NCBI GenBank assembly: GCA_964106915.2 | Contig: OZ066922.1 | Reading direction: 5' to 3' (one strand) | Origin: Podarcis gaigeae | Lineage: Eukaryota | DNA: 64,000 bases | In this document: in pieces, positions 31,024-60,879 of the stretch | How the letters are laid out: every line of letters starts with the position of its first letter | Numbering within the stretch: position 1 is the stretch's first letter | Made by a program: the position numbers and the translations under genes | Notes under the pieces: generated by a model | Database searches by the model: none | What the model saw: only the letters and a program-made list of their open reading frames with translations | Told to the model about the DNA's origin: nothing

Positions 31024-31054
31024 TACAGTATTCAGTGCACTTTACCCCCTGGTA

Positions 31055-32550: not shown

Positions 32551-32627
32551 TGAATAAAGTAAGATGAACGCGGAGTGCGTTTCGCTCTCCGATGGCGTAG
32601 CCAGCGCCTAACCCCAAGCATCTGGTA

Positions 32628-32900: not shown

Positions 32901-34455
32901 ACCTTGATCCATCCTGTTGATTTCGGTGCAGAAACAAGTTCAAGATTACTGATATCAGGATTGTTCTTCAAACTGCCTTCAGGACCGTGATCTTTACGTG
33001 GGTTACTGACCTCCCAACCACTCCCACGCCATCCTCTGCCCACGCACCTTTGCTTCCTCGGTTGTTTTTTGGGGGGAGGGAGAGTTCGTAATGAATTTGC
33101 CTTCCTCTCCCAATGGTTTTAATGCAGAATTACTCCCACTGAGTAAGCCTTCAAGACGTCGGGATCTAGGGAAGGAGGTTGACTCTGCTGAGTCTGACTT
33201 TCCTGAAATTGTTCAGAAAAGAATAAAGGGATTAAATAGTATAAGCCTTTCTGGGAAAGGAATAGCAAAAACTCGTGTGTGTGTCTGAAGATACAAATCT
33301 CGACCATATAGATATAAATTTCGACCATACTGTAGTTCATTTGCGAAAGTTATCGTTTGATTTTCCACACTTGGTTCGCGCGAAGAGTTACTATTTCTAG
33401 TGGATATTCTCTCTAGATACATACATAGAAACATTCATATCAGGTTCAAAATGAAAACAGAGGAGTAAACAGCTGCATTCATTTATCTTTATTAAAATTT
33501 ATATACCGCTTGATTGTTTTATAAATAACTAAAGCGGTTTACAAAAATAATAAAACAATGACATGATCAATTAAAACAGTTAAAAGCAACTACTTAAAGC
33601 ATGTATCAATGCCTGCATTTATAAAAGACTCCTCCAAACTTTTCCTTGCCTTTTATCTACTGCTCACTTTTTGCCTACGCTGACACGAGGATTTTTTTTA
33701 TTGAGAGCAAACAGTTACTATTTCTGGAGTAACTAGATAGAGACAGGGGTTGGTAGGTTGGTAGATACTATAGACTACTTTATTTGGGAACTATCCTGAT
33801 CTGTTTCAGTCAATGCACCTTTGTCAGGATTTCACAGTAGAGTGGAGATTCCATCCGCTTGAACTTTCTCACAAATAAAGTTTGTTTACGGCTGGACCAT
33901 CAGAACTGAGTAAATTATCTAAATGTCTCTCTCTTGTTATGTGTGGGTGATCACCAACGTTAGAATATGGATTCCAGTGGGTCTGCTCTGAATATGACTT
34001 ACTTGGATGTCACCAGTACTTTGCCATTATTGTTGGGCGTAGAATTATTGCCATTTCACTGATTCACTTCTCTCCTCTAGCGAAATTTAACATCCCGATC
34101 CTAAGTAGGACTTATGAATAATGGGACTTCCTTTCCCCCCTCGTATGTTCAGAATATCTCCTGGGAGTAGTCCTGCCTGTTTTGCCTAAATGCTTCCAGC
34201 CGGCTCGATCCCAGGAAGATATTCCCCAACAAGCAGAAATGGAAAGCTAAAACTGCAAAGGATGGTCGAAATACACCAGCTGAACTATATTTTTTGACAA
34301 TGAAAATATGAAGCACGATTCAAGAAGGCCGTTCATTGGGACATTCGTTCATGACGCTTCAAAAAGGTTATTCTGTTCTATGCAGCTAAGAAATCATGTG
34401 GCAATTGTTTACTCGTGGCTGGAGGCTCTTTCTGATGCCAGTGTGCCTTCATTGA

Positions 34456-34465
<10 letters not shown>

Positions 34466-34510
<45 letters not shown>

Positions 34511-34520
34511 TACTACTATA
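34466..34520. repeat. (TTA)n/(CTA)n microsatellite
   Basis: Visible run. Confidence 0.9.
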
Positions 34521-34657
34521 ACATTGCAATACAATCCTTCTCCACTTCTGTATGTCCGCCTGTCCATCCACTGGTATCTTCAAGGTCCAATCTGACGATG
34601 TAGTCTCTTGCCTACAGTACTTCATGCCATCATAAGCTGGTAAGGCTGGAAACTGTG

Positions 34658-34676
34658 CATTCATTCATTCATTCAT

Positions 34677-34717
<41 letters not shown>

Positions 34718-34718
34718 T
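34658..34718. repeat. (CATT)n(CAGC)n compound microsatellite
   Basis: Visible run. Confidence 0.9.
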
Positions 34719-34882
34719 AGCCTTTATTGGCACAATTTAGACAATAAGATCATGAAAGAAAAAGAAAAAAAGCAACCCCTTTCCAGGGAGTCAGTCCCAT
34801 TGAACTTAATGGGGTTAACTTCTGAGTGGGTTTGAGTGGGTGGGTGTGGGTGTGTACATGCAGGGAGGGATGGACTGCTAAG

Positions 34883-35020
34883 GCAGGATTGCTAAACTGT
34901 GGCCTGCCGGATGTTGCTGGACTCCAGCTCCCATCAGCCCCACAGTCAAGCATGGCCGATGGTCAGGAATGATGGGAGTTGCAGTCTAACAAGATCTGGC
35001 GAGCCACAGTTCACCCACCG
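34883..35020. mobile_element. Family C hAT MITE
   Basis: AACTGTGGCCTGCCGGATGTTGCTGGACTCCAGCTCCCATCA...TGATGGGAGTTGCAGTCTAACAAGATCTGGCGAGCCACAGTT. Confidence 0.7.
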
Positions 35021-35693
35021 ACACAGCTTGAAAGGCCAATTCTTCTTTCTGATTTTACTGAGTTTAGGCCCAACGACCCTCTAGGAAGTGTTGTTGTTGT
35101 TGTTCTTGTTGTTGTTGTTTCCCTTCTCTCTACCTGTCCAACTTTTTCCTTTTGGGAGCAGGGGTTAGTTTCCGGATTTCCCTCTTCGCCACTAGCAGTA
35201 TTCAACCCCTCTACAAACCTACACCCGGCAAGACTTCAGCTCGGTCCGCAGCCTCCCGGGCTTCCAACTGAGGGGGAGGGAGGAGAAAGGGGGTCGCCTT
35301 CTGCTGGCGCCTTGCAAAGGAGAAAGCGCACGCAGGCAGGCTAGGGAAGGAGCGAGGACTCCCAGCGCGCCCCGCCGCTTTTCCAGTAAGCCTCTCTGTG
35401 TTTACGTTATGGCATTTTTCTGTTTGTAATTATTTTTTATTTTAATTTATGTCATTTTTAACATGAGCCAGACCATTGCTCTCCCCTTTCGCCTTTTGTA
35501 CACAGTGACTCTCTTCATGATAGTATGTCCTTTTCCATACACACACATATACATACCCCCTGGTATATTCCCCCACCTCTTCCCTTTTTCCGAGCGTGTT
35601 TACTACTCTTTATTAACAGACTTTTTTCTAATATTTCTTCCTCTTCCCAACTCCCTCCCCCCCCCCACGCCCCAGCCTGCCATTCCCTGGTGT

Positions 35694-35821
35694 NNNNNNN
35701 NNNNNNNNNNNNNNNNNNNNNNNNNNNNNNNNNNNNNNNNNNNNNNNNNNNNNNNNNNNNNNNNNNNNNNNNNNNNNNNNNNNNNNNNNNNNNNNNNNNN
35801 NNNNNNNNNNNNNNNNNNNNN
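35694..35821. other. Assembly gap
   Basis: Run of N. Confidence 1.
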
Positions 35822-35921
35822 GACCAAGTGACCCGAAGTCTGATTATATGTCATTATCTGGAGACTCGGTGTATCCAAATTACCAAAACGGCCTCACTCA
35901 GCCAGATCAATTACATTTAGA

Positions 35922-35922
<1 letters not shown>
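35822..35922. promoter_or_regulatory. Probable HAND2 branchial/pharyngeal arch enhancer core (Dlx5/6-responsive)
   Basis: Four ATTA homeodomain cores at 35843, 35853, 35879 and 35910 in non-repetitive sequence ~11 kb upstream of the TSS. The mouse arch enhancer is described as having four ATTA sites. Its left side abuts an N gap. Confidence 0.6.

Positions 35923-35925
<3 letters not shown>

Positions 35926-35965
<40 letters not shown>
35926..35965. repeat. (GA)n microsatellite
   Basis: Pure GA run directly after the arch-enhancer candidate. Confidence 0.95.
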
Positions 35966-35968
<3 letters not shown>

Positions 35969-37200
35969 AGGAAGGGGGGCGAATGAGGGAGGGGTTGGAT
36001 ACGCAAATATAGGCATGCCGACACCTCTCTCTCTCTCTTTCACTTTCGCCAGTGCAACGTGCTCAGCCTAAAAAACACACGTCGGTTTGAGCACCATGGG
36101 ATCGCGCAGGTAGAAGCGGGCGCTACTTGCGTAAAAATGTACCGTATTCACGTGCCCCGAGGTTCGGAATTCATAGTTTAGTCGCCCCTGTTCTAGAAGG
36201 CTAGTGTGAACCCAAAGGAGACCGCGCTCATCCAAAAACGAGGTCTGAAAGCAAACGTCAAAAGGCGCCCAGTTAGCCACTAGTCGTGAGATGTGTCATG
36301 GGGGGCGGGTATAGAGCAAGGGATTCTCTTATGAAGTATCAAGTCGTGTAGGAATACAAACTTGCCAAAAGCAAGGAAATATTGTAGTGCAGAACAAATG
36401 TAGGATTGCCAATCCTCCCTAAGAGTTTAACCGCCACTGTAATCGGAGCCCCCATCACCCCAAGACAGTTTTGTAGTATTTCCAAAAGATGGTCGGCGTC
36501 TGACTCCGGCGACTCTCCATGTTTTACTTTTCTTAGCTATTACCATTACTCACATAATATTGATCTACCTAGAGGTCAACTTCAAAATCTGCAGCTAGGG
36601 TTGTCACTTTTTTTCTTGCCATCACTCAGTTACAGGGCAGGCAGAACTTGTCTACAGCGCGCCCCTTAAAGGCACAGGAACCCTGGCAGGGGAGATGAGG
36701 TAACGCGCGCTCAATTTGTTAACAATTGCAGGGCTCTGAGGATGGAGAGAAGGGGAGCAAGGCCGTCGTCCGCACGGCTGAGAAGCCAGGCTTCGCCTTC
36801 CATCCGCTGTCACGCAGTTCCATCAGGCTGTAGCAACGGGTGAAGAGGAGGGGCGCAGGGGCCCAGGGACCACTCCTCTGGTGCAGCTGAAGGACCAGCA
36901 ATTCTCGCTTCCTCCTCCTCCTCCTCTTGATCGGTTTCCATCCCAGCTGGTCATCAGAAGAACTTGTCACTAAAAAATGGTCCCTAGATATAGTACTTAT
37001 TTTCTCCTGCCTCCCCCCTCCTCCCAATATGAGAACATGTCTTGTGTTTATTGGTCTGCAAGTTTATTTCTTTAGTTCTGGAGTGGCTGTTGTTTTGTTT
37101 TTGCTGAAGAGCAAGGTTTAAAAAAAGTTTTCAGTCAATCAAGTGGGGGACTACATATCCATATCTCAAAAACAAAAAAGTGATCGGTCGGCCTGCCCCA

Positions 37201-37202
37201 TT

Positions 37203-37261
<59 letters not shown>
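37201..37261. repeat. (TTTC)n microsatellite (poly-purine tail of an antisense LINE/SINE fragment)
   Basis: Pure run followed by ATACCTCCCTATACCAGGAGGTCTCAGGGCAGTTCACA. Confidence 0.85.
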
Positions 37262-37494
37262 ATAATACCTCCCTATACCAGGAGGTCTCAGGGCAGTTCA
37301 CAGAAAAAATCAAAACATAAAACCTCAAAATAAAAACAACCCAATAACCCCCCCAAAAAAATTTTTTTTCTAGCATTAAATAAAATTTGGATCATTATAC
37401 AGATGGCTTAGGCAGTTTGTTTCAGATACTTAATATTTCTCCCACAGAAATTGTTAGACCATGCAGTGGGAAAGTCATCCACTCCTCTAGATAA

Positions 37495-37805
37495 ATTTAT
37501 TTATTACATTTAGATCCCACCTTTCTACTAAAGATCTCAGAGGAGCTAGTTGATTTTCCCAAGCCACCATTTTTATACTCCTTGTGAGGTAGGTTAGGTT
37601 ATGAGTGTGACTGGTCCATAATCACCCAGTGACATGGGCCGGGGGGGCAGGGAAGGGCAATAAAAATACATAGCAAACTGAGGTTCTGCGCCCCCCTCAA
37701 CAAAAGGTCTGCCCCCCTAAGAAAAATCCTGGCTACGCCCATGCCCAGTGAGCTGAGTGAGAATTAGACCTGGGTTGTGTCCCTCGGCCCTAGTCTGACC
37801 CTGCA
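37495..37805 (-). mobile_element. CORE/MIR-like SINE interrupted by a hAT MITE
   Basis: TGTGAGGTAGGTTAGG...GTGACTGGTCCATAATCACCCAGTGA [insert] GCTGAGTGAGAATTAGACCTGGG. Confidence 0.65.
37633..37743. mobile_element. 111-bp hAT MITE with 8-bp TSD
   Basis: CATGGGC...GCCCATG ends; CCCAGTGA duplicated at 37625-37632 and 37744-37751. Confidence 0.85.
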
Positions 37806-39279
37806 AGCACTTCAGCTTATTGACTTTACCCAAAGGGTTGGGCTCAGGCTGCCTGCAGAAGGATCGTCCCATAAGAATGGTGCTCATTTGCCCTGGACTT
37901 AGGTGGGAATGAGTTTTCCCCAGAATCTTGTAGAAGCTATGGATCCGAGGGCTGGGCATTCGTAGGCATCCTCCTCTCTCTCAGTGTGGCACCAATTATC
38001 CTTAGAATAGCAACCTTGCAGGCCGCCCTTAAGCATGCTTACTCTGAAGTATTTCCACTTGGCTTTCTGGAATATACTTCTTGGTGAATATATTTAGAGT
38101 TTGAGTCTTAATTTGTTCCTCTTCCTTCTGCTCCCATAGACTCAGGGCCTTTGGCGTTGAATGGTTATTCCTCCGCCACTTCATCTGCAACTCCCAAAGA
38201 GAGCTTGGGTTAGACTTAATTTTATACCACTGGTTGATCTGGGGTCGAAAGAAAACCTACTAAGCCACATGAGTGGAAGCAAACGCACTTGAAAGCAATG
38301 GGCATTCATTGCTCAGAGGTAAAATGCAGGTTGACCCACCAGCCCACGTTAAAGTTCTAGGAATCTGTAAAGTGGTTTTCTCCCAATGGAAGTCATCGAG
38401 ACTCACTCATCCTATATACTTTTACTTGGAAGTAATTCCCAATTAATTAAGGCTGAAGTCCTTAATTATCGAAGATAAATAATAATGAAATAAATAATAT
38501 TTCTAACTTCCTTCTCATAAAACATCTTAAGACGATTAGCAGTAAAAACATCAACAAAGGCATGTATGAATACAGGGGTCTTCACACATTTCATATAGTG
38601 TACAATCTGTGTGCCTGCAGTTACAATGGCTTGAGCTGCACAAATCCACAAGTGCATCCTCTTTCACACAAACGTTTGTATTGCAACCTTAGACGTGATC
38701 CACATATTGTCATCAGTGAGTGATACAACCCCCGTTTTGCAGTTGGGGCAGAATTCACTCATTCATTTATTTGAAATATTTCTTAGGCACCCCTTCATCA
38801 AAAGATTTCAGGGTCGCTTGTACATAATACATATGTTCACTGTAATGCCAGAATAATCCTTAGGGAATGTGAAATGGAGATACCAGCCAGCCCCCTTTTT
38901 ATTTTGAGTGAGCACTCTGAAACCTTCGTTCACACAAGCCAACAGGTACACCGTGGCAGAAATGGTCCGGTTTCTTTTGAGTAACAATATTAACTTGGTA
39001 ACACCCAGAGTGGCCCTCTATGCAGTGGCTGCAAAAAATAAAATGGAATTTAAAAATCCGGAAAAGGGGGTTAGATAAAATCCCTAAATTGTTGTACTGA
39101 TTCGGAAATTTAATTTGAAATCAAATTGAATTTTGTTTGAGTCTCTGGTCCTCATGGATGTTGGCACATATTATGGCTGTATGATCTGCATTGTTTTATT
39201 GGTACTGTTGCTGGGAGTTTGTCATGGCCTTTGACTAGAACAATAATCTTATATTGATCCTATGGAGTGAGCAGTCTTA

Positions 39280-39375
39280 CTGTGCAATCCTTTGCATGTT
39301 TACTCAGAAGTAAGTCCCACTCTGTTCAGAAGAGAAGAGGTTACTTCCTAGTAAACGTGCTTAGGATCTCCGCAT
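39280..39375. mobile_element. Family A hairpin MITE
   Basis: GTGCAATCCTTTGCATGTTTACTCAGAAGTAAGTCCCACT...TTACTTCCTAGTAAACGTGCTTAGGATC. Confidence 0.7.
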
Positions 39376-39394
39376 CATGTTGCAAGATCCATTA

Positions 39395-39515
39395 GGCTGT
39401 GTCCAACCTTACTCCTAACTCAGAGACGACCCATTGAAATGAACGGATGTGACTAACTTAGGCACATTGATTCCAATGGGCCAACTCTGAGTAGGACTAA
39501 CATTGCTTACAACTC
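39395..39515. mobile_element. Family B MITE
   Basis: GGCTGTGTCCAAC...CTCAGAG..GACCCATTGAAAT...TGACTAACTTAGG...CAATGGG..AACTCTGAGTAGGACTAAC. Confidence 0.7.
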
Positions 39516-40179
39516 ATTTTGATTTCAACTAATATTTGATGTACGCAACTATAGGAAGAAGTCCATGAATCACCCCCACCAAGTAAACATTGTCAATGTT
39601 GACAGCCTTACTTCCAAGGCTATCACCTTCAGCTAAAATTTGATTATTGAAAGAAAAAGACGACACGGAATAGCAACAAAATCGCATGTAATTTACTCTG
39701 CTTAATTCTAGAGACTTTGTGCCATGGGTCTGTAGACTCTTAAACGCAAAAAGAAAATAACATAGAACGAAGATCACAGAGAGATGTTTATTTTTATTTT
39801 TACCTTAAATATGCCCAAGACAAATTATAAAATGTGCGGGGGGGCGACGACATTACAGTAGAGATGAGAAAGAAACTATGCAAATAACAACTGTTTAAAT
39901 ATAGTGTCCATATTTGTTGTATATAGGGGGGCAGGAAGAGAGAGAGAAAAATGCGAAAGTCACCCTAGCAAGACTTCTCTTAGAGATTCTTCAGCAGGGC
40001 AGAAATTTCTGCCCATATGATTTAAGTACCATAGTGCATTTCAAACAGGACTTGAGATCGGAATTGGGTCCGTCGCACCTTAAATCTGGGGCGAGCATGG
40101 GCACTCCTTCATGCATTCAAATAGTTCTCTAGTTTGTCGACTAATAACATTGGGAAATGGCTAGGAGCGCTCCAGTGCC

Positions 40180-40450
40180 TCGATGGCGCGTCGAACAAGC
40201 CAGCCCTGACACTTTATTGATACCACCCACCCACAAACAAGTATTTTCTACTCCCCTGGTCGATTTGTGTAACTGGAACTGCTGGGGTGGGGGCGGGAGG
40301 GAAGAGGAGGGGGAGATGCAGCCCGCCAGATGTCAGCTGGCCTTCAAGACTCCCGGATTTCTGCATAAATTAATTATCTGAAGAAAAAGAAGGTTTGGCG
40401 GAAAGATGATACAAGCCTCTGCGAATAAACCTGTCAAGCTGTAGCCTGAC
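40180..40450. promoter_or_regulatory. Candidate upstream HAND2 enhancer
   Basis: CCAGATGT E-box 40326-40333, CAGCTG 40334-40339, TAAATTAATTA, GATA TTATCT 40374-40379, TGTCA sites; non-repetitive. Confidence 0.4.
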
Positions 40451-40813
40451 CCCCCTAAAACACAATCAAGCTTGCTTGCCAGTGTATCCTCATGACTTCA
40501 GTGAAACTTGTTTCTGTGGCGTTTTAAGCCAACCGTTTCTCCTGGCTTGCCTCTAATCGGTTTAATAGGAGGAGATGCAAACCACAAACCCGCTGGAGTC
40601 ACAGGACAGCCTTTAAATCCATCCAGCGCCTCCGGTCGAGCTGGGAAGTAGACTGTTCCGTTACCATTCTCGCTGCCCCGACCCGCGAATGACTCGAAGT
40701 CCTTCTGCAGTGGAAGGGAATCCAAAAAAACTGGGCGTGACACGAATGGAGCGCATCTAAGAGAAAAGCGGGATATAAATATGCAGCTATAAGAAATATA
40801 TCAGCATTATGAT

Positions 40814-40942
40814 NNNNNNNNNNNNNNNNNNNNNNNNNNNNNNNNNNNNNNNNNNNNNNNNNNNNNNNNNNNNNNNNNNNNNNNNNNNNNNNNNNNNNNN
40901 NNNNNNNNNNNNNNNNNNNNNNNNNNNNNNNNNNNNNNNNNN
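40814..40942. other. Assembly gap
   Basis: Run of N. Confidence 1.
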
Positions 40943-41524
40943 TTCTGATGAAGGAGGTAAAGGCAATGATTTGCCTCCATTGAAAATCGTGGGGTGCAGT
41001 TCCCAGGAAAGGGGACGAGAAAGAATTGCTATTGCAATACAAGGGAGGGGTTGAAAACATGCAAGCAAACAAACAACACATCATGTGATGACAGCTGGTG
41101 GGGGGGATGAAAGAGAAGGGCGCACGACCTCAGGTGCCACCTTGCAAATATTTACTACTCCTTGGCCTTACTATGGCTGAGCTAATGCTGAGTTGAAACT
41201 TTGGCAGAACCCGCTCGCAAGACCCACCAGCTAATGTAAGGAGGACGATTTCAAAGGCGATTAATACACCCAGGACTTGATTTCATTTCACTGCGATTTA
41301 CTTCCAGGTGAACCAACCTGTTCGGGGTTAGGCTGTAAAGAGCACAGGGCAGCCGGATCCTAAACACAGGTTTTGATTGGGATACGAAAAGTCACTACGG
41401 TTTAGAATCCCAATTTGGGTAGGAACGAACAAGAGGGAGGCGGGAGAGAAAGTGGCGATTGTCTTCTAAAGAAAACTGTTTAGCATCCGCGCCTTATTCA
41501 GGTTATAAATGCATGCGGTCGTTT

Positions 41525-41697
41525 NNNNNNNNNNNNNNNNNNNNNNNNNNNNNNNNNNNNNNNNNNNNNNNNNNNNNNNNNNNNNNNNNNNNNNNNNNNN
41601 NNNNNNNNNNNNNNNNNNNNNNNNNNNNNNNNNNNNNNNNNNNNNNNNNNNNNNNNNNNNNNNNNNNNNNNNNNNNNNNNNNNNNNNNNNNNNNNNN
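41525..41697. other. Assembly gap
   Basis: Run of N. Confidence 1.
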
Positions 41698-44600
41698 GAA
41701 GTGTGTAGATTAGAACGAGGGCCACACGATGCCTGGTTTGGAGAGGTCTTATTGGGGACCGTCCTGTCTCCTGGTGTATCTGCTGTTTTCACTGGGAGCC
41801 CAAAGAAGCTGTTTAGGAGTACAAGTCAGTGATTGCAGTCCTACGGACGCTTATATTTTGGAGCAAGTCCCATTCATCCTGTTGTTGTTTGATTGTATTT
41901 GGGAGCGGCTTTAGAGGCGGAGGAGCCAATACCGGGGAACAAAAACTGGCACAGAAGTATATCTCAGAATTTGTTTCCGAGTCAGTATGAATCAGATCGC
42001 CGTGCTTGCAGAGGGTTTTGATTTTTTAATCTTAGGGGGAGAGCGCTCTTGTATTACCCATCAAAACTACAACTGTACAGCTTACATTATATTCCTGTTT
42101 TCCTCCATTCGCTTGGCTACGTGACTTTAGAACTCATTTTTAAGTGGCAATTTAAAAGCCGTGTGCCGGCTCCTTCATTGTTAATAAATTGGGAGGGGGA
42201 CGAATAAAAACTAACTCTTAAAACACAAAAAGCGTTTTGTTTTCGATTCCCTTCAGTTAGTCTTTGGGGCTCCTTTGGTATGAGTTTTGCAAGCGAAAAC
42301 AAATGCCTGCAAAAGAGTGCACCTCTCGCGCCCCCCCCCCCTCCTCTGATACAGACACGCATAATATAAGCACATATTTTCCCCTACTTGGGTTCATTTT
42401 TAAACCCAAGCAAAAGGGGAAACGGAAGTTAGAAGGCAAGGGAAATAATTTGGTTCCCAAGAAATAAATGTGTGGCTTGAAAACACGGGGACCGAAAGGG
42501 TCCCAACGCAGCCATCTAGCCGGTCCCGCCTATGTCACCTGTCCAGGGCCTTGCGCACGGAGGACTCTTGTCCGCGTCCACGAAGCGGAGCTCTCCCGGC
42601 ACCCGTAGTTCAGGACCCTCTCCGGGACATACCTTGACCTGCGATTCAGTGACACACTTTACTGAACTGCGCCCTCCCTCGGACTTGCAGAATATCCACT
42701 CCACCGTGCTCCAGTTCCGCCCAGGCTGCTTTTACTTTTCCACACCAGTTTGAGAAGGCTCAGGCCAGAAGGACAACGAAGCTCCCTTGAAAGGCAACAA
42801 AGAAGCAGTTATGAATGTATTGCTGGGACTAGAATCTGGCAAAGAGAGCAACCTTATTTCTTTCTTCTTCTTCTTTTCCTTCTCTCCTCTTTATCCTCCA
42901 GATCAGCATCCGCGCATTTCCTCGTAGCCATCCTCCTAGTTTATAATTTTCTCTTCCCTTTATTCCTTTGCTCGTCCACCTTTCCTTTTCTCCCCTTCCT
43001 GCTTCGCAATCCATAACTCTGAACATCCTCCATCTGTGTCTCTGTTTATTTATTTATCCTGCATCCCAGGAAGCAGAAATATTGGAACTGAAACCGGTTG
43101 GGATCCATCCTCCTAAACACGTCTAATCCGCAATAAAGCGTTTAGAATCCTGCTCTAATTCGACTGAATCCCACAACCGCTCTCCTGCAAACCGTCATTT
43201 ACTTAAGCAACCTATAAGTGTGCAGATTTTCAGTCTGAGCTAATAATATATACTACTATCACCAAACGTGAGCTCCTGTCTGTTTTACAGTTTATAAGCA
43301 GCACCAATATTTGGAAATTATCATAAAACCTCTCGAAGAAATAGAAATCAATGCTGCATTGTAATGGAGTTCAGTGCGCATTTCTACGAAGTCACACCTT
43401 TAGGATTTGAGTGGAAAAGAAAGCGCATACAATTTTTATTAGTATTATTCCTAGGGTGTGTATCTGTTTGAGGCACGGAGAGTGTGCATGCCGGTGTGTG
43501 GAGAAGATTTCAAAGGAGACTATGGGAAAGGAAAATAAGTGATCCTGCGCAGGATGCGTCGGCCTGGCGGTTTGGGGTAAATAAATAAAGCCACAACTTC
43601 TGAGAACCGCAGGACGCTGCGTCCTATTGGCGCGCTTTGCAAATCAAGAAGTGGCGCTTTAAAGGCCGCGGTTTGGGCGTCTAGATAAGGGAAGCCGCTC
43701 CCTCCCACCCCAAATGGCATTCCTTAAACGGTTTGCGGGCTGCTCTTCTGATCAGTATCTCAGGTGGCTCTGGTCGCATTTCGCTCTGCCGCTTGCTTGC
43801 CAAAGCTTTTTATCCCTGGAGATATTAGGGAACCAGCTGCAGCGGTTCACCACAGCCGCTCTCAAGTTTTTCAGGCTTGCGTTGGGGGCCCGCCTGAGAG
43901 ATGGCACGCCATTTATTTGCACTCGAAATTGTCTGCAAACAAATAGGTCCATTCAGCCTCTGCAAAGCCCACATTTCTGGACTGATTAATTAACACACAC
44001 GCGCACACGCATGCATCCAACCACAACGCATCCAACTATTATTCAGATCCCCTCACAGCTTTTTCTGGAGCAATGAACTCTTGCTAAACTTTGGTGAACA
44101 GCCGGACCCGCAAACTCAAAACTGGATTGTGGTCCAAACAACTCAGATCCTAATCTAAAAGTCTAAAAGGATTTTGTTCTAGGAGGAAATGAGTCCCGCT
44201 GCCTATGTTCAAGGGATCTTATTTCCCAGTACAGGACTGCTGCGTCAGAACACATAACGAAGCATATTCCTTGCAAACAAAATCAACTGAGGCCAAATGC
44301 GGGATCACTTTGCTTGGAGATCTGGGTGCTAATCGTCTTACAGTTCAATGCCTTGCATGTCTGCTCGGGAGCGAGTCACACTGAATTCAAAGGGCCTTGC
44401 TCCCAGAATAACTGTGGGCATAGGATTGCCACCAACATATGCCTGGACCTGAAAAGCGGAACCGGGCCAAACGCTTGGATGAACCCGTGGTCCTGGTGAG
44501 GACTCGGATTTTCGCGTCCTCGCTGCTCTCCTGACTGCATACTTCACTGTAAGTGGGCGCGACCCAAGTCCCACCGAAAGCCATGGCCCAATTCTCGTGT

Positions 44601-48443: not shown

Positions 48444-48639
48444 GTCAGTACGGCCCCGGAGGGAGGGAGGGAGGGAGTGGGGAGGGAGCGCTGGAGCACA
48501 ACCACACACATTCCCAAGCCCAGTCCGAAGAAGGACGCTCTTCTCCTGAGTTGGGAGCAGGGCCTTCTTTCCCCCAGAAGTAGCTGCTCTCGAAGTCTGC
48601 TTCCTTAGCAGTCAAGAAGAGGGAGGCGGCCTTCTCCTC

Positions 48640-48757
48640 CTATTCCAGCGACTGTCGGAATGCAGTTTTCCTCGGCCCCATGGCCAATGGTCAAGGGTGT
48701 TGGGAATGAGAGGTGTAGCCCATCAAGCCGTGGAGGACCACAGGTTTCCCGCCCCTG
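48640..48757. mobile_element. Family C hAT MITE inside the HAND2 intron
   Basis: CATGGCCAATGGTCAAGGGTGTTGGGAAT...GTGGAGGACCACAGGTTTCCCGCCCCTG right arm. Confidence 0.55.

Positions 48758-50200: not shown

Positions 50201-50202
<2 letters not shown>

Positions 50203-50236
<34 letters not shown>
50203..50236. repeat. (CA)n microsatellite, intronic
   Basis: Pure run. Confidence 0.95.
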
Positions 50237-50240
<4 letters not shown>

Positions 50241-51208: not shown

Positions 51209-51223
51209 GAGAGAGAGAGAGAT

Positions 51224-51264
<41 letters not shown>
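51209..51264. repeat. (GA)n microsatellite, intronic
   Basis: GA run with two GATA interruptions. Confidence 0.95.
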
Positions 51265-51268
<4 letters not shown>

Positions 51269-52108
51269 AATTGTGTAGACAGTATTGAGATGTGGGGGGG
51301 GGGGGGAGAATGATGAATGAGTAGATGCAAAGTCGTTTGGGGGGGGCTGATTTATTTTGTAGGTTCAGTGTTTACTTAGACACATATCCCACAACCTCAC
51401 AGGCCATTTGTCCAGCAACCTGAGATTCTGGGTAGCTTATACACTATTGGGCTGTTCAGTGAGCCGAAGGACTTTTTTTTGCTTTGCTTTGCTTTAAAGT
51501 GTGTGTCCAACGCCTGCAAATATGAAAGTCTTTTATAGTTAAAATAAAGTTCATCCTATATTTGGAGAAGCACTGTTCGCTCGCGTTTGGAGGGCGAGCC
51601 GATTCAGAAAACCGTTAAGCCTGGAAAAATAAGCAGGCCACAACAAATACTATACTATAGACGAGGCTACAATTCTGTGCACGCTTCGCTTGGGTGTAAA
51701 CCCCACAGAACTCCCAGGCCTTTAACTGAGTTGACGCGTGTTGGGTCGCCGTGGGAGCCGCTTTCCTTCCCAAGGGTTGCGCTTTTGCGCTGCATCCAGC
51801 TCCTCCGGCGATCCTCTACAAACAGCGGCTGCTCAGAAGGCTCAGGAAAGCGTACTCCATTGCACCAACTCCGCAGCCCTAGCTGGGTTGTGTTAAGTGT
51901 GCGGATCTGATCCCTCCACGTTTTGCGAGAAAGCCCGTTTCAGAGAAAGAGCTTGCTCCGTTTGCTCGGAGGCCTCTCAGCAAACGTACCGAGGCTCCTT
52001 TTACGCCTCCCTCCTGCCAAAGAGGTGCGGGCGGGAGGAGGTTAACCCAGATAAAACGCAGGGAGATAATCTCTTTGTTTCTCTTCTCCGTCTCCTCTCC
52101 CGGAACAG

Positions 52109-52207
52109 AACGAGATCCTGAAAAGTACAGTGAGCAGCAACGACAAGAAGACGAAAGGCAGGACGGGCTGGCCGCAGCACGTGTGGGCTCTGGAGCTCAA
52201 GCAATGA
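52109..52207 (+). CDS. HAND2: HAND2 coding exon 2 (NEILKSTVSSNDKKTKGRTGWPQHVWALELKQ*)
   Basis: Polypyrimidine tract and AG acceptor at 52107-52108. Translation gives the conserved HAND C-terminal peptide, with TGA at 52205-52207. Not in the ORF track because it is a short spliced exon. Confidence 0.98.
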   Translation, partial: NEILKSTVSSNDKKTKGRTGWPQHVWALELKQ

Positions 52208-52344
52208 GGCGCTCGCAGGACTGCAGGGAAGGAGCGCCCGAAGAAGCCTCGTCTTGCCGGGGGACTCTCTGCGCCTTCGAGAGAGCCGCTGCCGAGCTGA
52301 GGACTTGTTGTTGTTGTTGTTTTGGAATCGTCTGGTTTATTTAT

Positions 52345-52351
52345 GTGCAAT
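52345..52351 (+). promoter_or_regulatory. miR-25/32/92/363/367 seed match (7mer-m8) in HAND2 3' UTR
   Basis: GTGCAAT next to AU-rich TTTATTTAT; miR-25 regulation of Hand2 is established in mouse heart. Confidence 0.65.
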
Positions 52352-52416
52352 TTCCCTCCCCTAGTCTCGCCTTTAAAAAAAAAAACCCCAAAAAACCGCG
52401 GATCTTGGAAGAAAAG

Positions 52417-52423
52417 CATTCCA
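52417..52423 (+). promoter_or_regulatory. miR-1/206 seed match (7mer-A1) in HAND2 3' UTR
   Basis: CATTCCA pairs with the miR-1 seed GGAAUG; Hand2 is an established miR-1 target in mammals. Confidence 0.7.
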
Positions 52424-52830
52424 TATTTGAATATATGAAGAAGAAAACTCCGGCGTGGTAAGGGGGATAATGGCGTCTCCATAGTTTTTTGTTTTGTTTT
52501 TTTCCCCTCCTTCCTCCTCTCTCCCCTTCATTGAATGTTATTTTTGCTTTATTTGTATAGAACACACGGGACAAAAAGAAAGAAAGAAATCTCGCAGGCA
52601 TTAGGGTGTCATGTGACGTGTATGTGTTTAATACTTGCCCCGTGGGGTCAACGTGTCGATGGCGATCTCAAAGCAGGAGCCCACAATTTCTGCGTCTTGG
52701 GCCAAGTCCGGGGCTTCCCAGGTTTGTCCTTTTCCCCATTGCGGTCGCTCAGAGAGCTGGGAGAGATTTTGCGACAGCTCTTTTGTTCAAGTGCACTTCG
52801 GTCCTTAAGGAAGCGAACCGAACGTTAAAA

Positions 52831-52930
52831 ATTAAAATAAAAGTAAAAACGAATAGTCCGTGGAGCTGAATTTAATAACGCAAAGGTGTAAACGCTGTAC
52901 GTATTCAATAAACCACTGTGTGTGTGTTTT
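52831..52930 (+). terminator. HAND2 polyadenylation signals
   Basis: ATTAAA/AATAAA at 52831-52841 and AATAAA at 52907-52912, followed by GT-rich CTGTGTGTGTGTTTT. Confidence 0.7.
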
Positions 52931-52999
52931 CTAAAACGAAAATGTTCGATGCATTGAAATGTTTTTTAACCCCTTTCCTTCCTGAGTTTTGCTATTGTA

Positions 53000-53055
53000 A
53001 TCCTGGTCGTTTACTTCCAAACGTTAGCTAACGTTTGGAAGTAAATGTCCAGGAT
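53000..53055. repeat. Palindrome: 36-bp perfect core, 56 bp with two mismatches
   Basis: TTTACTTCCAAACGTTAG|CTAACGTTTGGAAGTAAA at 53010-53045. Confidence 0.95.
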
Positions 53056-53887
53056 GACATATCAAGGTGAGATCCTGTGGGCTGGGGTTGCCTGCGAAAG
53101 CCTTGTTGGAAGCGGTGACACTTACTTCCGAGTAAACGCGCGGCATAGGAATTGGGATAGCAAGCTTATGCCTTTAGTTTTGACCCTGGTGAAAAGGTAA
53201 AAGAGAAATATCAAAGGCGGGAGATGTTTTTTTCCCCCGAGACTTTGGCTGCGATCCTGACCACGTTTCCGCGGAAGTAAATTCCACCCGTGCTCAGGGG
53301 GCAGGGAAGCATTTACACTGAGCCAAATACTATTTCTCAGGTTGATGTTTTTATAGTACTTTATATGGGCCGTAGTAGAGCACTAGATCAAGTCAGAAAC
53401 AAATTTTGCTTTGTTTTCTCTGAGGAGTGAGAGAGAGAGGTTGTTTAGTTTTACTGAAGCTGTAATAATTTAGTGATTTCTAAAGGTGTTTGCTTGCGAA
53501 TGGGGGAGGATACTGCGGACGGGAGGTAATCTGGATATTTATTTCGTGCTTATCGGAGCGAGCTGTTTTTCTCGGCGTGTTGTATTCAGAGGTGGCAACC
53601 GGCAGGGCGTTGCAGGGAAAGGTTTGTGCTGCGGAAGCGCCCTCGTGCTTTGGCTGGGGCCAGGCCAAAGATGGTTTAGGAAACCTCGGTATACCGTGTA
53701 AGTGATTATGTAACTTGGAGCTTTATGTCAAGTATGAAACAGGGAGCAAGGCTAGGGATTTCGGAAAGGGGAGAAATGCAAGATTTACAGTGAGATACGG
53801 TGACCTGGATATTAACTTTGTGGTTCCCTAAAACTCTCCTGGGTTGCACTTTTCCTTCCAATTGACTGCAGCGAGTCCATTTATTTA

Positions 53888-53889
<2 letters not shown>

Positions 53890-53927
<38 letters not shown>
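53890..53927. repeat. (TG)n microsatellite
   Basis: Pure run. Confidence 0.95.
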
Positions 53928-53929
<2 letters not shown>

Positions 53930-56079
53930 GTGTAGTCCTACTCTGGCAAGGGCTTCCGAATTGGGCTCTGTAATGTTCATAAGGGGAGCAGCGAGGAAGA
54001 GAATAAAATGGGCTTGTTCTACCGAAACTTATCTGGGATGGAAACGCCACCAGGCCGGGAAACAGACTCCCCTGCCTTGAAGCTCCTTGAAACTGACCAG
54101 GGCTGGAAACCGCCTCGATAAGGCGACGCTGGCTTCTAACAACCGGAAGAAACGCTGGTGTCGCGAAATGGAAAACCCCCGTCATTCTCGTCCCTTTTCA
54201 AAGGACCTCGCTCCCTCTTCGCAACAGCATTGCCCAAAATTTCCCAATACTGCTGCTTAGTCCTGAGTTTTCTTTTCAGCCTTTTCTTGACCGGCCTGAA
54301 AAGAGAAGCGGCGCTAACGGAGTTGAGGTTGAGGACATAGGAACCGAATGGCGTCCGTCATTTTGCGTGGGGTTTAAGCTTGTCCCCTGAGGAAGCTTGC
54401 TTTGGTCTTAATCGGGCTTTCAAGGTTAATCGAGAGGATTTTTCATTCTTTCTCCCGAGCTCACTTTTATAGATCTGTAGCCCCCGGGCTCCCGGCGTGA
54501 GTGGAACAAGACATCCGCGCAGGCTGGCTGGCTCTGCCCCAGATGTCTCTGATGTGCGTGGCTGTTGTTTTTTGAAACCCTCCCCCCCCCTTTTCTTTTC
54601 TTTTCTTTTCTTTTCTTTTAAATGGCTCGCCCTGGCCGTGCTCTGACGAAGAGAGAAGGTAGATTTCCAGCTGCCCATAAAAATATAAGCAGGGGCCTTT
54701 TACACCGCTGTCCAGGCCGCCTTGACAACAGGAAGGTTGCGAGGTTACAACAACGAGGCCAACGTGGTGTGCCCTCTTCCAGTCCCGGGGTCAGGTAGCT
54801 GAGGCTTGGAAGAGCTGTGTTTACAGACACTTGCCTGGGAAGGAACATTCCCTCTACCCCCCCACCACCACCTCACACTTTTCTTTTCAAAAAAGTTAAC
54901 TCTAGCTGCTGTTGTAGCTGGATCCAATCTCTCCTTTCCAACCCAGTACGATTTTTCGTAGATCTTGCTCAACGCTATCCAAAGTTCTGGATAGAAAAGA
55001 GAAACAACTGGTTCAAGGATCGCGCAAACTTCCCACTCCCAGACGCCGCCCGTCCTCGCGTGTTTGTAGATTTCTGGCCCAGAATATCGACTGGCAAGTC
55101 TTTCTATGTTATGTTTGCACTGTTACATCCACGCAGTGCTTTGAACTAGGATTTTAGAAGAAGCGGGTCTATGTTCCGAGGCTGGGGCGAGTGCTGAAGG
55201 GTTGATTCTTCACCACCACCTCTTCTTTTAGGAACCCCCCAGTTTAATGAATAAATTATTCCTCATTCAAACTTCTCAACGCTTCCTTCCCGAACAGCAG
55301 CAGAAAAGGAAAACCTGCACTTGTTTGTTTGCAGTAGAGAGCATACTTGAGCGATCTACGCTTTCTCTCACACACGTGTACGCACGAGCTCACAGGGTCA
55401 CCAATGCCACTCTTCCTAGGGAATAAGGCCCGTCGTATTGTCGAAATAGTCGATCATCCAGTCGCTTAGGTGGTATTAGAGAGAGACTGTTAACTCCGTG
55501 TGAACATGTTTATGCATTACTTTAAAGCTTCCCCCACCCTAGAATGGAAAGATGCTGCAGAATCGTCAGGATCCCACCCAAAGTCAAGAACTTTGAGACT
55601 GCAATCCTACCCACGTTTACTTGATAAACTGAAATCCGCGGCGCTGACTTCCAAGTAATCATAGATACTAGCTCGGTTGCACTATTTTCGACCCCTGGTG
55701 CTAGAAATAAGAGTCCAGCACGATAATAATAACAGTGTCTGCCCGACCGGGGCTTAAATTTGTGTACCGATCGCTAGCGATCTAAGCTCTCAGACAACAA
55801 GCCCCCCCCCAAACCCAAGAAATCCTCTGACTTCCGTGAAGAGGTATTTCTAAGTGTGCGCGGAGGATCTCAACCATAGAAACAGACCAGGTTGACTGAC
55901 CGGCATTTTTTCCCCTTTCCACCAGATGATCAATAGGACTTTTGGCTTCCAGTCCTCCTCCTCCTCCCTCTCTTTGTCTAAACGAGTGGGGCCATCGGAC
56001 CCACTGAAAGGTGATGGCGGGTGGGCGGGCGAGGGTTAAGAGGGGAAAGAGGGAGAGAGAGAAAGGGTGGGGGGGGAGA

Positions 56080-56310
56080 GATCCTTTTTAATTGCTCGGT
56101 AATGGGGCTGTTGCTATTTTCTCAGGAGCAATCATTCCTGGAGCTAAATCGCAAGAGCCCTAGACAGGCCGGAGCCGACAAAAATGTAGCTTTTGACGTT
56201 AAAAGCTAAATGGGGAAGCGGGGCGGTGGAAGGTAAATTGATGGTCGATTGGGATGTCAGGAGCCCTGGCCCCAGATCGCTGCGCGGGAGCTGCGAGCCT
56301 GATAAGGCCC
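56080..56310. promoter_or_regulatory. Candidate downstream conserved element
   Basis: TAATTG 56089-56094, TAAATTGATGG 56234-56244, TGATAAG 56300-56306, in unique CpG-rich sequence. Confidence 0.4.
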
Positions 56311-59300
56311 TCTCTCGCTTCTTGGGACGTGGTCCTTTCGGGCAGCGACTCGCTGGGAACTGGGGACGAGCCTGGCAACGTCTCTCTCTCCCTCTCTATC
56401 TGTAAAGTTCTCGCTAAGGTCAGGCCTGAACTTCTCCGTCGCCTTGTCCACCCCCACTCCCTTCCCTGGGATGATAACCGCTGCGCAACCAGCGCCACGG
56501 GGAGGGAAGAGATAGAGAGGCCTGAGAAAAAGATCAGGATCCTTTTCTCTCGCGTCGCCTCCTGGCTGGCAATAATGGCTTAAGAGGCCGCAGCAACTAT
56601 TTGGTAGGTAACCCGAGAGGGGAAATTAATGAATGAGCCACAGCCAAGGAGAGAATCTTCTGCAACTGGTTTGGAAACGCGCATCGCAGAGAGGACGAAG
56701 CGCCTGGATGCAAGGCGGGAATTTCCCTGAAGTTTCTTTAATCCTCGAGGAGACCCCACTCCCCTCTCTGCTAGGCGCGTTTCTTCACTTGAGAGTAAAC
56801 ATGCATAGGATCGGGTTGGTAGCCTCCGTCAGATCACCCTCGCAAAGCCATCCCCCTGCGTGTTGACGCAGAAATCTGGGGAGTTGTGGCGAGGGCGACT
56901 TTCTACAGTGAACAAGGCAGGGAATTATTATCTGATCCGTGGAACTTTTGCTTCCCAGCAAATCTTCCCAGGATGAGATGCCACGCCAGGCTGCGGTCAT
57001 TAGCCTCATGATCCCGAATACATTTTTCGGGAAGCAAATTGCCTCGAAATAGATTTGGTTTTCTGGCCCAGTGCAATGGGACCAGGAAACAGTCCACATT
57101 ATAATTGAAATCCCTGGATGGTTTTTATCGGCTGCGGATCGCCCTTTAAGCCTGTCTATGATCACTTACTTGGGGGTAAACACGTGCGAACCTGGGTTGC
57201 ACCCCATCCTCTAGCATTGGCGCGCAGCATTAACTCCCTAGGGACTCGCTTCCATGCAAATGTATTCTGCTTCTGGGCAACAGTTTTGCGAGAATGGAAT
57301 ATACTTTTTTTAAAAATAAAGTGATAGTAGCATATGCCATGGTGTTTAATGATTTTCAGATACAGTATAGCTCACAAGTGTGTTTAATTCTCCATCATGG
57401 CCTTCAAAACTAGCATTTGCCTCTCCTTTCCCTTACTAGCATAAAGAAAAGAATCGTGTTTGGAAGGCTTATAGAACATCTTCCTTATTAATGTGAATTA
57501 TATTTACTTACTTTCCCTGTTTTGTTTTGAAAGGATTATTTGGAATAGTTTTAAGGCTGCAGTACTCTGCACGCTTTCTTGAGCTCCAGCCTTGCGGGCT
57601 TGCAGTGGGGCCTGCAGAGCAAACGCGCGCAGGATTGGGGCCGTGGAATCTACTGTTTGACTTCTTTAACAAGGCGGCCCTTCATTGAGAGAATGAAGCC
57701 CCTCTGACTTCTGTCGGGTGAGCATCTCACATATGTGAATGTGGGACAGGAATGTGCCTTTTGGACTCTGTTCCTTCCCATCACTTGTTTTAAATAGGCA
57801 ACTGGAGCTACGCGAGAGTAGCTGGCTTCCAGATTGCAGGGAGGCGCCCCGATCCTAAACACATTTGCTTGGAATTAGCTCCCTTTGATTTCAATGGGAC
57901 TTCACTTATCTATAATGTCTTCAGTATGGGGTGTTGCTCTCTCTACAGCTTCAGCCGTGCTGCGGTGATTTATTTTAAGAGCCCGCGAAAATCGTTTATT
58001 TGTGTAGGGGTAAACTGTAGGTTGGGAATCTGAAGGTTTGCTTGTTTGGAAGTGGATTGCATTGAAATAGGTGGGAAATGCAAAGTTTTAGGAGGTCGGC
58101 CCTTGTTGGGAGCCACCGAGAATGCGCTATTTGCTTTTCATTTTCCTGCGGAGAAGCTTAAGCCGCAGTGCATCACAGCCTGAAGAAGTGAAAAGAATAA
58201 CTATCCACAATATTTACGTGCTGACTTCATATCCCTTTAGATTCTGTTTAAAAGCTGCACACTAGAAAAAGGCCCTGATTCAGCTGCGTGAATCGGATTT
58301 CAGAATCTGCCATCGAAGGCCGACCAACCAGTATGTTTTGTTTTTGTTTGTGGCCATCTTTTTGTCTCTCTCTCCATCAACATGCAAAGTTATTTAAATA
58401 TATCTTTCTTTAACCTTTGAGCTACGTTTGTGGACAAGATGCAGCTCAGAATAACTGCTGAGGTTCTGGCGCTCCGGGGTTATTGTCCACAATCTGGCGA
58501 AAGTCTGAATTATTACAGGCCTATTCATTTATTTACTTTATTCTTTATTATTTTTAATTACCGCCCTTCATCAGAAGATCTCAGGGCGGTTCACAAGATA
58601 CATAAATATTTTTTTACCAGAGAGAAAACCTTATTCAGCAGAGTGGGTCTTCCTTCCAAATCGACACATATTAGAACTGTACTATGTGTCTCTCCCATTC
58701 AGCTTGCCCGGTCTTAGATATAAATGTGTGGACCGTTTGCTATTTCAATCCACACAATATATTCCCTCTCCACGGCCTTCCGCTTTCACAGCTGGAATAA
58801 AGTACCTGGATTTCATTCAGTGTACAAACCCACATCTTAGATTTCCAAAAGTAACTTAAAAGCGAACCTGTCCAATTTGGGGTACCACTATCCTTTCCAC
58901 ATATTTCTTCTTACAACTGTTGTTCCAAATACATCTGCTTGGAAGAGGTACCATTCGTTTCAAATTTGAAATGCTTCCAAATATTTGGAATATATGCTTC
59001 CAAATATATATTTTGTGCTCAAGAGGGCGCTTCAAATACCCTAGGAATGCAAGATAATGTTGATTTGCTTGCATGTTTACTACAGATAGTTTCCTCCTGT
59101 CCACATATGTCAGAATAGCTTGTTTTAAGTAGTACTAGTATAGTAGACACTTGTTATTTTACTACTGATTTACATTTGCATGGAAATCAGTCTCCACTAG
59201 TCTGAACAGGGCCTACCATTACCAAACTCACACTGAAGCTCCTCAGTGCAAGTGATGGGTTGGAATATATTTAATGACAGAACAAATTCTCTGAAATCAG

Positions 59301-59340
59301 TATTTCCCTCGGTTGAAAATTATCTTGTCTGTATTGAACC

Positions 59341-59775
59341 AGGGACGTTTACACCAGCACTGAAACCTCTTTAACAGACTTACGCCTGTGCATGTTTGGC
59401 GGTGATGATGAGGGACAGTTCTCATGAACTATAGGGTACCTTCAGTTGTAACAGACGAGCTGCGAGGACTTGCCTGAAGTCCTATAGCCGAGGGGTAGGA
59501 AACATGTGACCCACCATTAATTTGGCTCATCATATCTGACCATCACTCACGCTGGCTGAGGTTGATGGGAATTGGAGTCCAACCACAAATGGAGATCCGC
59601 AGGTTCCTAACCCCGGACGAGAGGACTGCAGCCTAATCTACGCAACGCACCCATCAATTACAAGCTGAAGTTCCCCTAATCATAGTTCATGAGAACTACT
59701 CCCACCCCCATAAGCACCAGACACTCGCGGACATACATCTGTTAAAGGAATTTCAATGCTGTTGTAAACAACCCT
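59341..59775. repeat. Diverged long inverted repeat (~105-bp arms) enclosing a family C MITE (~59490-59615)
   Basis: GTTTACACCAGCACTGAAA..CTTTAACAGA / TCTGTTAAAGGAATTTCAATGCTGTTGTAAAC; AGTTCTCATGAACTAT / ATAGTTCATGAGAACT. Confidence 0.75.
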
Positions 59776-60879
59776 TGTGTTCAGTTCAATTACTTGGGCG
59801 TAAACCCTACTGAACTCAAAGCGATTGCTGCTTAGAAGACGTCTATCGGACTGAGTTGATAATCCATGAAAATTCCCCAGTCTTAAAGATTATACTTTAT
59901 GGAATGGGGTGTATGGATGTATTCCAGGATTTCTATAATCTTACTTTTGTTAGATGATTAGGTAAAGAGGTCAGGCTTGAAAAAGAAGGCTTTTCGTTCC
60001 TTTCATTCATTCCTTTTTTCTTCGGTACTTATTCCAAAAACAGCAGATGGCGTTAGTAGTAGGAACTGGAAAGAAAACGTGTTAGGAATTAATAGAGTGT
60101 ATTTCGAGCACTGGGATCGATCGCCCTTGTCGGTAGTTCTTCCGTGAGATTTCTCTGTGTTGTGGATTTGTCACATGTTCCGTGGAATTGCTCACTCTAC
60201 CACCCCAGCCCTGTTCCTGAACTTTACAGCGCTTTTTCCTTCGAGCCAGATAACGATGGCGAGCCTCTCCGTCAAAGTTGGCGTCAGAATGACGCGCGGA
60301 GCGTCTCGCTGGCCTCCTCTGGCTGCGATCCGCATGTCACTTGGGGATCCCTATATGTGTAAGCCCCATGGAACTTCAATGGGTTCTCTTCTGAGTGAGC
60401 ACGGACAGGGGGATCGCGTTTGCAAGACCCTACACTGTCAAACTATTCGGATTTCCTTACACCCTCCAGCCCCGCAGCCGTTTAAAACGTGCGTATCATT
60501 GATTTTTACGCCTGTCTTTGACGCTTGGCAATAGGTCCAGGAGATTTGCAACATTAAACTGCGATCCCAGTTATGCGTGGAAGGAGATTCCGTTGAAATA
60601 AAGCGAATGACTTCCAAGTAAGGTTGCAGTCCAGCCCTACCATGGGCGGTGGAAGTGCTTTTGGACTTGAAAACTGGGACCCTTTTTAACTGGACTGTGT
60701 CTCTTTCCTGTGAATGGAGCTTGACAGTGGAAAATAAACGGATGGCCACGTTCCTGCCGCTGTTGTAACCTCTTCTGCGGTTATAACTCAGGGTTATCAT
60801 TCTCTCACGCTCTTCTTTCTGCTTTGCAGTCTATAAAATATATACACTCCCCACCCCAGCACCTTCAAATCTTTTCCAT

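Follow-up and report, generated by a model that had tools for sequence, protein, structure and literature searches.

Why is one short hairpin transposon so dense in the surroundings of a single developmental gene? The question is raised by a 64,000-nucleotide stretch of the 1.51-Gb genome of Podarcis gaigeae (contig OZ066922.1, assembly GCA_964106915.2; G000:C19:33728001-33792000), hereafter the window, which contains HAND2. A first-pass annotation had seen there a ~90-bp miniature inverted-repeat transposable element (MITE), recurring roughly 30 times at 34-61 kb and under 10 times in the first 31 kb, and had suggested that a transposon targeted unmethylated developmental-gene chromatin. We counted the element with profile models in the window and at other loci, and weighed the possible causes of its excess.

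The MITE excess at HAND2 and at other developmental loci

Window counts were made with hidden Markov models (HMMs) trained only on copies from outside the window, which avoids circularity. With a broader HMM, the domain at 34.1-60.6 kb contained 30 copies versus 12 in the first 31 kb at ≥5 bits, 24 versus 10 at ≥8 bits, 21 versus 7 at ≥10 bits (binomial p = 0.002) and 12 versus 5 at ≥20 bits; false matches per 64 kb were 1.4, 0.16, 0.10 and 0 at 5, 8, 10 and 20 bits. Model 1, built from 34 copies at 29 genome loci, found 16 copies in 34090-60635 versus 6 in 1-30000 at ≥12 bits, a threshold at which reversed and local-Markov controls gave ≤0.05 matches. Density is therefore not uniform across the window, and the pile-up is real, at ~3-3.5-fold. 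The original tally of roughly 30 versus under 10 is reproduced with weak copies counted and not at stricter thresholds. Degenerate copies also proved detectable, 18 of the 21 positions listed earlier scoring ≥10 bits with the broader HMM; the other three fell below (57130, 9.1 bits; 51005, 6.0; 53000, 0).

The ratio of observed to expected CpG (CpG o/e) steps up at ~30 kb, from 0.07-0.35 at 1-30 kb to 0.41-0.84 at 30-62 kb. The CpG-rich, MITE-rich domain runs ~20 kb past the window end (seen at window 63600-64000 and in tiles L208-L209), with a CpG value of 0.6 and 8 and 6 copies in the first two 10-kb tiles beyond it and background farther out. Tiles 3' of HAND2 hold 7, 8 and 6 copies and the HAND2 promoter tile 1, and the 18 tiles flanking the domain, to -743 and +521 kb, hold ~1 per 10 kb. 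MITE density around HAND2 tracks the CpG domain and not the gene desert upstream, which lies at background (9 copies/100 kb). The idea that insertions substantially spaced out the HAND2 intron and enhancers is not supported: the 3665-bp intron contains two copies ≥10 bits, 7-10% of the domain is taken up by its 21-30 copies, and no excess is seen in the desert.

Beyond HAND2, copies ≥12 bits were counted in 10-kb tiles. Forty random tiles were the first 40 of 60 draws, made on lower-bound contig sizes. Forty single homeobox tiles were picked by E-value from 150 matches, excluding Hox-cluster members, long open reading frames (ORFs) with several homeodomains, stop-carrying matches and one overlap with the training set. 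To these were added 20 Hox-cluster tiles, 20 FOX tiles (from the first 20 among 65 forkhead matches) and all 34 sites of a YY1-type motif (20 in 10-kb tiles and 14 in 6-kb tiles), presumed to be housekeeping promoters. An independently trained model found 0.75 copies per 10 kb in random tiles (30 in 40). Homeobox tiles had 2.9 (116 in 40), Hox tiles 3.1 (62 in 20) and FOX tiles 2.6 (52 in 20), each with p<2e-4 versus random at the tile level, and YY1-motif promoters had 0.45 (9 in 20 tiles) and 0.60 (5 in 84 kb, 14 sites). The developmental-to-random ratio was 4.0-4.6 at 10-30 bits and 2.7 at 40 bits with the independent HMM, and merging clustered copies left 132 versus 37 clusters (3.6-fold). 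The enrichment extends beyond HAND2 and is real, replicated and family-specific. Of the proposed targeting of developmental genes, the enrichment is supported, at Hox clusters, 40 single homeobox and 20 FOX loci; any targeting would be a ~4-fold preference and not strict, most copies lying elsewhere.

Several sources of artefact were rejected. A second HMM, trained on 30 perfect-ended copies mostly from CpG-poor DNA, gave the same ratio. Reversed and local second-order Markov controls for GC- and CpG-rich DNA yielded 0-0.3 matches per class at ≥12 bits. The enrichment persisted in distal and inner chromosome strata, and the density of the target YTWAR was similar or lower in developmental tiles. 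A GG variant of the element (18 versus 2) was not decisive for subfamily-specific targeting, and other diagnostic sites showed no split.

Family specificity was assessed against fourteen control families, namely the 15 largest repeat clusters minus those of the MITE and of homeobox exons (13 clusters left) and a second hairpin MITE. At homeobox/Hox loci the controls ranged from 0.00- to 1.05-fold, and the MITE reached 4.33-fold; when eight of the controls were retrained with copies from developmental loci alone, they still gave 0.38-1.03. Six families of similar age (divergence 0.20-0.24) pooled to 100 versus 241, compared with 147 versus 34 for the MITE (odds ratio 10.4). Two small young families stood at 0.83-0.88. 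One family, presumably a CR1-like 3' end, was neutral as a whole (1.05) but somewhat frequent at the single homeobox loci (L071-L110; 32 versus 23 at random), unlike other retroelements.

Nor is unmethylated DNA by itself, as first suggested, sufficient: among moderate-GC, CpG-rich 1-kb bins, those of YY1 promoters held 4 copies in 60 and those of developmental tiles 130 in 346 (p=1e-5), and developmental tiles were equally enriched in their CpG-poor bins (48 copies in 151). What MITE density tracks is the broad CpG domain rather than CpG itself. The only random tile with 7-9 copies, found blind, falls in a 26-kb CpG-rich domain.

That domain (G000:C24:23083901-23133900; tiles L238, L239, L061, L240, L241), which lies 3' of a gene that we take from its translation to be BMI1, holds ~26 copies, and the adjoining 20 kb, with the promoter of this gene, holds 1. 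A PDB search with the long ORF beside tile L061 returned nothing, and no confirmation of Polycomb marking of this domain was found in the literature.

Anatomy, target site and copies in the window

The consensus is 90 bp long with 32 of 45 pairs self-complementary, and its left end, GGCTGCAATCC, begins GGC. The right end given in the first-pass annotation, ...GCAGCC, would be symmetric and is rare (5 loci); the usual one is ...GGATTGYRCTG, that is GGATTG(C/T)(A/G)CTG, with 62 genome matches in which both ends are exact. Its YR is a decayed CpG, reading CG, CA or TG in 18, 8 and 7 of 47 copies with CpG-rich flanks and in 0, 12 and 5 of 26 with CpG-poor flanks, and the ancestral end was probably ...GCGCTG. 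Short, non-coding, bounded by terminal inverted repeats (TIRs) and abundant, the element is a MITE. Copy number is estimated at 85-115 thousand, in agreement with 1332 exact genome-wide matches to a 16-mer end motif (0 in the control). Median divergence from the consensus is 0.257 (~26%), and decay is plain to see in the interior even of perfect-ended copies; the family is therefore extinct. As first reported, copies in CpG-rich surroundings are themselves CpG-rich (2.7 CpG/100 nt in 145 copies with CpG-rich flanks versus 0.63 in 75 with CpG-poor flanks), and A/T to G/C changes are more frequent there (0.206 versus 0.160). Sixteen of 161 gaps between neighbouring copies are ≤10 bp; abutting copies occur in tiles L073, L091, L110, L131 and L149, some with one common TWA. 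The 93 best-ended copies are sparser near chromosome ends (6, 5, 25, 23 and 34 from end to centre).

The flanks read Y-TWA...TWA-R, with Y at -4 in 25 and R at +4 in 24 of 30 copies. Identity of the two flanking 3-mers, copy by copy, was not significant in unselected sets (6/85; 6/35), and none of seven window copies inspected had the same 3-mer on both sides; the TTA/TAA noted earlier at 45375 and 57552 is present, on one side only. The target-site duplication test turned significant once both flanks were fixed by pattern. Among such pattern-selected copies, a right TAA paired with a left TAA 17 times, TTA 5 and TGA 2, and a right TTA with a left TTA 10 times, TAA 4 and TCA 2 (Fisher p=0.006 for matching of left and right TWA). 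The four left-side TGA/TCA cases fit transitions from TWA. The early attribution to PIF/Harbinger-like MITEs is upheld by this genome-wide TWA duplication and extended target preference, and the element is likely a non-autonomous member of that type. PIF/Harbinger elements start with G or A at both ends; here the left end is GGC and the right mostly CAG, with GGC in 5 loci.

A transposase search gave 12 DDE_Tnp_4 matches, 11 of them without stops and probably domesticated; a further search gave four Harbinger transposase matches with stops, the end comparison covering the flanks of one of them. At least seven intact Harbinger-transposase-like ORFs (L186-L192, L195), probably domesticated, exist besides a gene that we presume to be HARBI1-like. 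Domesticated Harbinger transposase copies in Anolis are a comparable report (PMC3014272).

Copies in the window are listed in Table 1. The copy at 39280..39369 folds as DNA at -17.5 kcal/mol (z -3.8). The position noted earlier as 53000 is a near-perfect 65-nt hairpin (52996-53060; -25.5 kcal/mol as DNA; HMM score 0) whose arms resemble the right arm of the MITE, possibly a template-switch derivative. The second hairpin MITE, ~130 bp with a similar central motif, lies at 23271-23343, 24371-24443, 39420-39492 and 61698-61770 and is not enriched at developmental loci (0.62). Rfam models for structured RNA matched the window only at 10695-10766, a tRNA-like sequence that is probably a SINE (short interspersed element) head; one repeat family of the window resembles Sauria SINE. 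A 152-nt palindrome with arms 92% complementary lies at 19379-19530.

Table 1. HAND2, its CpG domain and MITE copies in the window
Feature	Position	Strand	Score or remark
HAND2 exon 1, coding part	47862..48443	+	
HAND2 exon 2, coding part	52109..52207	+	spliced ORF 226 aa
CpG-rich domain surrounding HAND2	30001..64000	.	CpG o/e 0.31-0.84 vs 0.07-0.35 upstream
MITE copy, partial	34775..34830	+	38.2 bits
MITE copy	38018..38101	-	20.1 bits
MITE copy, half	38409..38450	+	14.6 bits
MITE copy, best-preserved in domain, hairpin	39280..39369	-	58-74 bits
Weak MITE copy	40467..40518	+	10.2 bits
MITE copy, half	41834..41876	+	16.2 bits
MITE copy, partial	44186..44240	-	13.2 bits
MITE copy, near full-length	44339..44429	-	52.1 bits
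MITE copy, full-length, CpG-rich, TTA at one end	45292..45377	-	24.4 bits
Weak MITE copy, HAND2 intron	49022..49070	-	10.3 bits
MITE copy, HAND2 intron	51665..51748	+	29.8 bits; spanned in contigs from 4 related organisms
MITE copy, partial	53096..53150	+	21.2 bits
MITE copy, partial	53251..53307	-	17.4 bits
MITE copy, full-length	55599..55683	+	27.6 bits; within 277-bp stretch missing from one related organism
MITE right-arm fragment	56785..56818	+	14.9 bits
MITE copy, full-length, CpG-rich, TAA at left end	57555..57637	+	19.0 bits
MITE copy, partial	57849..57905	-	28.0 bits
MITE copy, absent from the first-pass list	58613..58686	+	23.3 bits
MITE copy	59784..59858	+	30.5 bits
MITE copy	60322..60409	+	25.1 bits
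Weak MITE copy	60561..60627	-	10.0 bits
Three-copy MITE cluster outside domain	3101-3179, 3214-3287, 3497-3562	.	74.1, 29.9, 41.7 bits
Two adjacent weak MITE copies outside domain	8834..8951	+	12.3, 11.8 bits
MITE copy outside domain	27334..27388	-	27.5 bits
MITE copy outside domain	28894..28969	-	59.5 bits

A proposed insertion preference and its rivals

We place insertion preference first among the explanations, followed by retention, exaptation and local hopping. That the ~4-fold density in developmental CpG domains reflects an insertion preference for such chromatin, probably Polycomb-marked, we judge somewhat more probable than the contrary. In the mechanism that we propose, a now extinct two-protein element of Harbinger type would have mobilised the MITE in trans, and its transposase would have inserted preferentially into broad developmental CpG domains, the chromatin preference acting in the germline or early embryo. 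Afterwards the copies would mostly have drifted neutrally, with CpGs kept and gained in a domain that was presumably unmethylated. Of the 4-fold excess, a part of at most about 1.5-2 probably comes from slower DNA turnover in the domains.

A possible molecular route is suggested by work on other members of the superfamily. A Myb/SANT DNA-binding partner is described as taking part in Harbinger transposition (PMC2836001; PMC4482050), and the Harbinger-derived ALP1 as binding Polycomb repressive complex 2 (PRC2) in Arabidopsis (PMC4671723). These two findings make tethering of a Harbinger element to Polycomb chromatin plausible by analogy. The specific proposal that this transposon homed to Polycomb domains, through a Myb/SANT partner or a transposase binding PRC2 or Polycomb chromatin, is one that we put forward as doubtful. 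If it were true, the homing element would be the selfish precursor of those domesticated plant Harbinger proteins that bind PRC2, the ~100,000 fossil copies left behind would map the ancestral germline Polycomb domains of squamates, and a large share of the unclassified repeats in lizard Hox clusters would be due to the MITE.

A number of observations weigh against an insertion preference for Polycomb chromatin. The Polycomb nature of the domains is deduced from gene class and CpG profile only, and the sample amounts to 1.5 Mb out of 1.5 Gb. In the window, the excess is mostly one of weak, decayed copies and shrinks at high scores (model 1, domain versus 1-30000: 5 versus 4 at ≥20 bits and 3 versus 3 at ≥30 bits). 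The 93 best-ended copies give a weak signal around 141 developmental genes: 5 of them lie within 100 kb, where 1.25 would be expected (p=0.006), and none lies within 20 kb, where 0.3 would be. The parent element was not found, the 12 DDE_Tnp_4 matches showing no MITE-like ends within 1.5 kb, and TWA pairs are discordant in 9 of 36 cases, more than transversions alone should give. Moreover, depletion is milder in old control families (0.38-0.62, with one at 1.05 and one at 0) than in the three largest young families (0.18-0.39). Because the MITE is the oldest family sampled (0.257 versus 0.20-0.236 for the next six), a retention effect that sets in beyond a certain age may also be at work.

These last points bring in the strongest rival, which we consider possible yet unlikely: insertion was even, ordinary DNA was turned over by deletion and younger insertions, and developmental domains, turning over slowly, tolerated a short promoterless MITE and excluded longer or promoter-bearing elements. 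The age of the MITE and the milder depletion of old controls speak for retention, as does the distribution of other repeats, whose coverage is 23% in random tiles but 5-6% in homeobox/Hox tiles and 1% in the HAND2 domain. However, retention would require ~75% loss outside the domains, and similarly old short families fall below 1, including the other hairpin MITE (10 versus 16). Pure retention is disfavoured because copies at developmental loci are no more complete than others (median span 72 versus 76), because within control families the older half shows no greater enrichment than the younger, and because repeat-poor non-developmental tiles (0.28 copies per 10 kb, 18 tiles), like the HAND2 gene desert, are unenriched. 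No more than about half of the excess seems attributable to dilution or retention.

Selection might instead have kept copies near developmental genes as enhancers, insulators or Polycomb-recruiting elements, which we hold to be improbable. Precedents exist in selected transposable element (TE) fragments that cluster near mammalian developmental genes (Lowe 2007, as cited in PMC9004415) and in a Harbinger MITE described as enriched at Xenopus liver enhancers (PMC12676858). However, domain copies are equally or more diverged (0.264 with CpG-rich versus 0.242 with CpG-poor flanks). Wherever contigs from four related organisms reach a copy they span it, except at a 277-bp stretch (55587-55865) missing in run X17. 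In 40 of 507 rows of differences, the 90-bp copy at 51665 carries at least 3 versus at least 21 in the 889-bp contig of run X5, and run X17 has indels in this copy and is without that at 55599; both comparisons are weak. Exaptation is unsupported by these thin cross-species data, and functional copies are not supported.

Least probable, by a shade, is local hopping or self-attraction that amplified a few chance founders per domain, a reading that draws on the short gaps and the abutting copies with a common TWA, and that is countered by the 3.6-fold excess surviving the merging of clusters and by recurrence of the enrichment at many independent loci, which chance founders do not explain.

Comparison with known systems

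Among other repeats with similar features, Zator elements have a TWA target and GG termini, and the Chompy-type MITEs of crocodilians and turtles are alike in size (~90 bp), hairpin form and PIF/Harbinger label, a likeness of general description only. The MITE also resembles Tourist-like MITEs of PIF/Harbinger (such as mPing and Harbinger-N12A_XT), which are described as short, non-coding, palindromic and abundant, with a TWA duplication, a left TIR starting with G and an extended target preference (PMC4482050; PMC2836001; PMC12676858). Unlike these, the present MITE has asymmetric outer 3-4 bases (GGC.. left, CAG.. right), its cognate transposase was not found, and it is enriched at broad developmental CpG domains and not at tissue enhancers or 5' gene flanks. 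The NuwaII group, of the PHIS superfamily, targets C|TNA|G with TIRs that begin GG (PMC4482050), resembling the Y-TNA/TWA-R flanks and GG left end seen here; in contrast to NuwaII, the middle target base is mostly A/T and the right end is not GG, and NuwaII is absent from the squamate entries in the relevant portion of PMC4482050. Chapaev3 of Anolis shares the TWA duplication, age and squamate host (PMC3014272); this identity was rejected, Chapaev3 TIRs beginning CAC and the MITE ends being GGC and CAG.

Squamate Hox clusters are reported to hold many interspersed repeats (PMC4969037; PMC9498476), about 55% of those in Darevskia being of unknown type (PMC9498476), and non-Anolis clusters to be TE-poor relative to their neighbourhood (PMC6791295); MITE and Harbinger go unmentioned in the passages of PMC6791295 bearing on this point. 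A search of full-text literature, with supplements, Dfam and Repbase outside it, returned no paper in which one MITE family is concentrated at developmental loci of squamates, and this family may already be catalogued. Were Polycomb chromatin indeed what the MITE preferred, this would be one of few vertebrate examples, with a link to the Harbinger-PRC2 interactions of plants, and the copies would offer a neutral readout of how unmethylated domains mutate (CpG kept, more A/T to G/C).

Transposons are normally kept out of the domains of developmental genes, and the squamate repeat load there has so far been read as relaxed constraint. Whereas the published accounts describe a relaxed exclusion, we find a single family four-fold above genome background, with all other sampled families neutral or depleted, and an excess that reaches non-clustered homeobox, FOX and HAND2 loci, suggesting that part of the load is targeted insertion.

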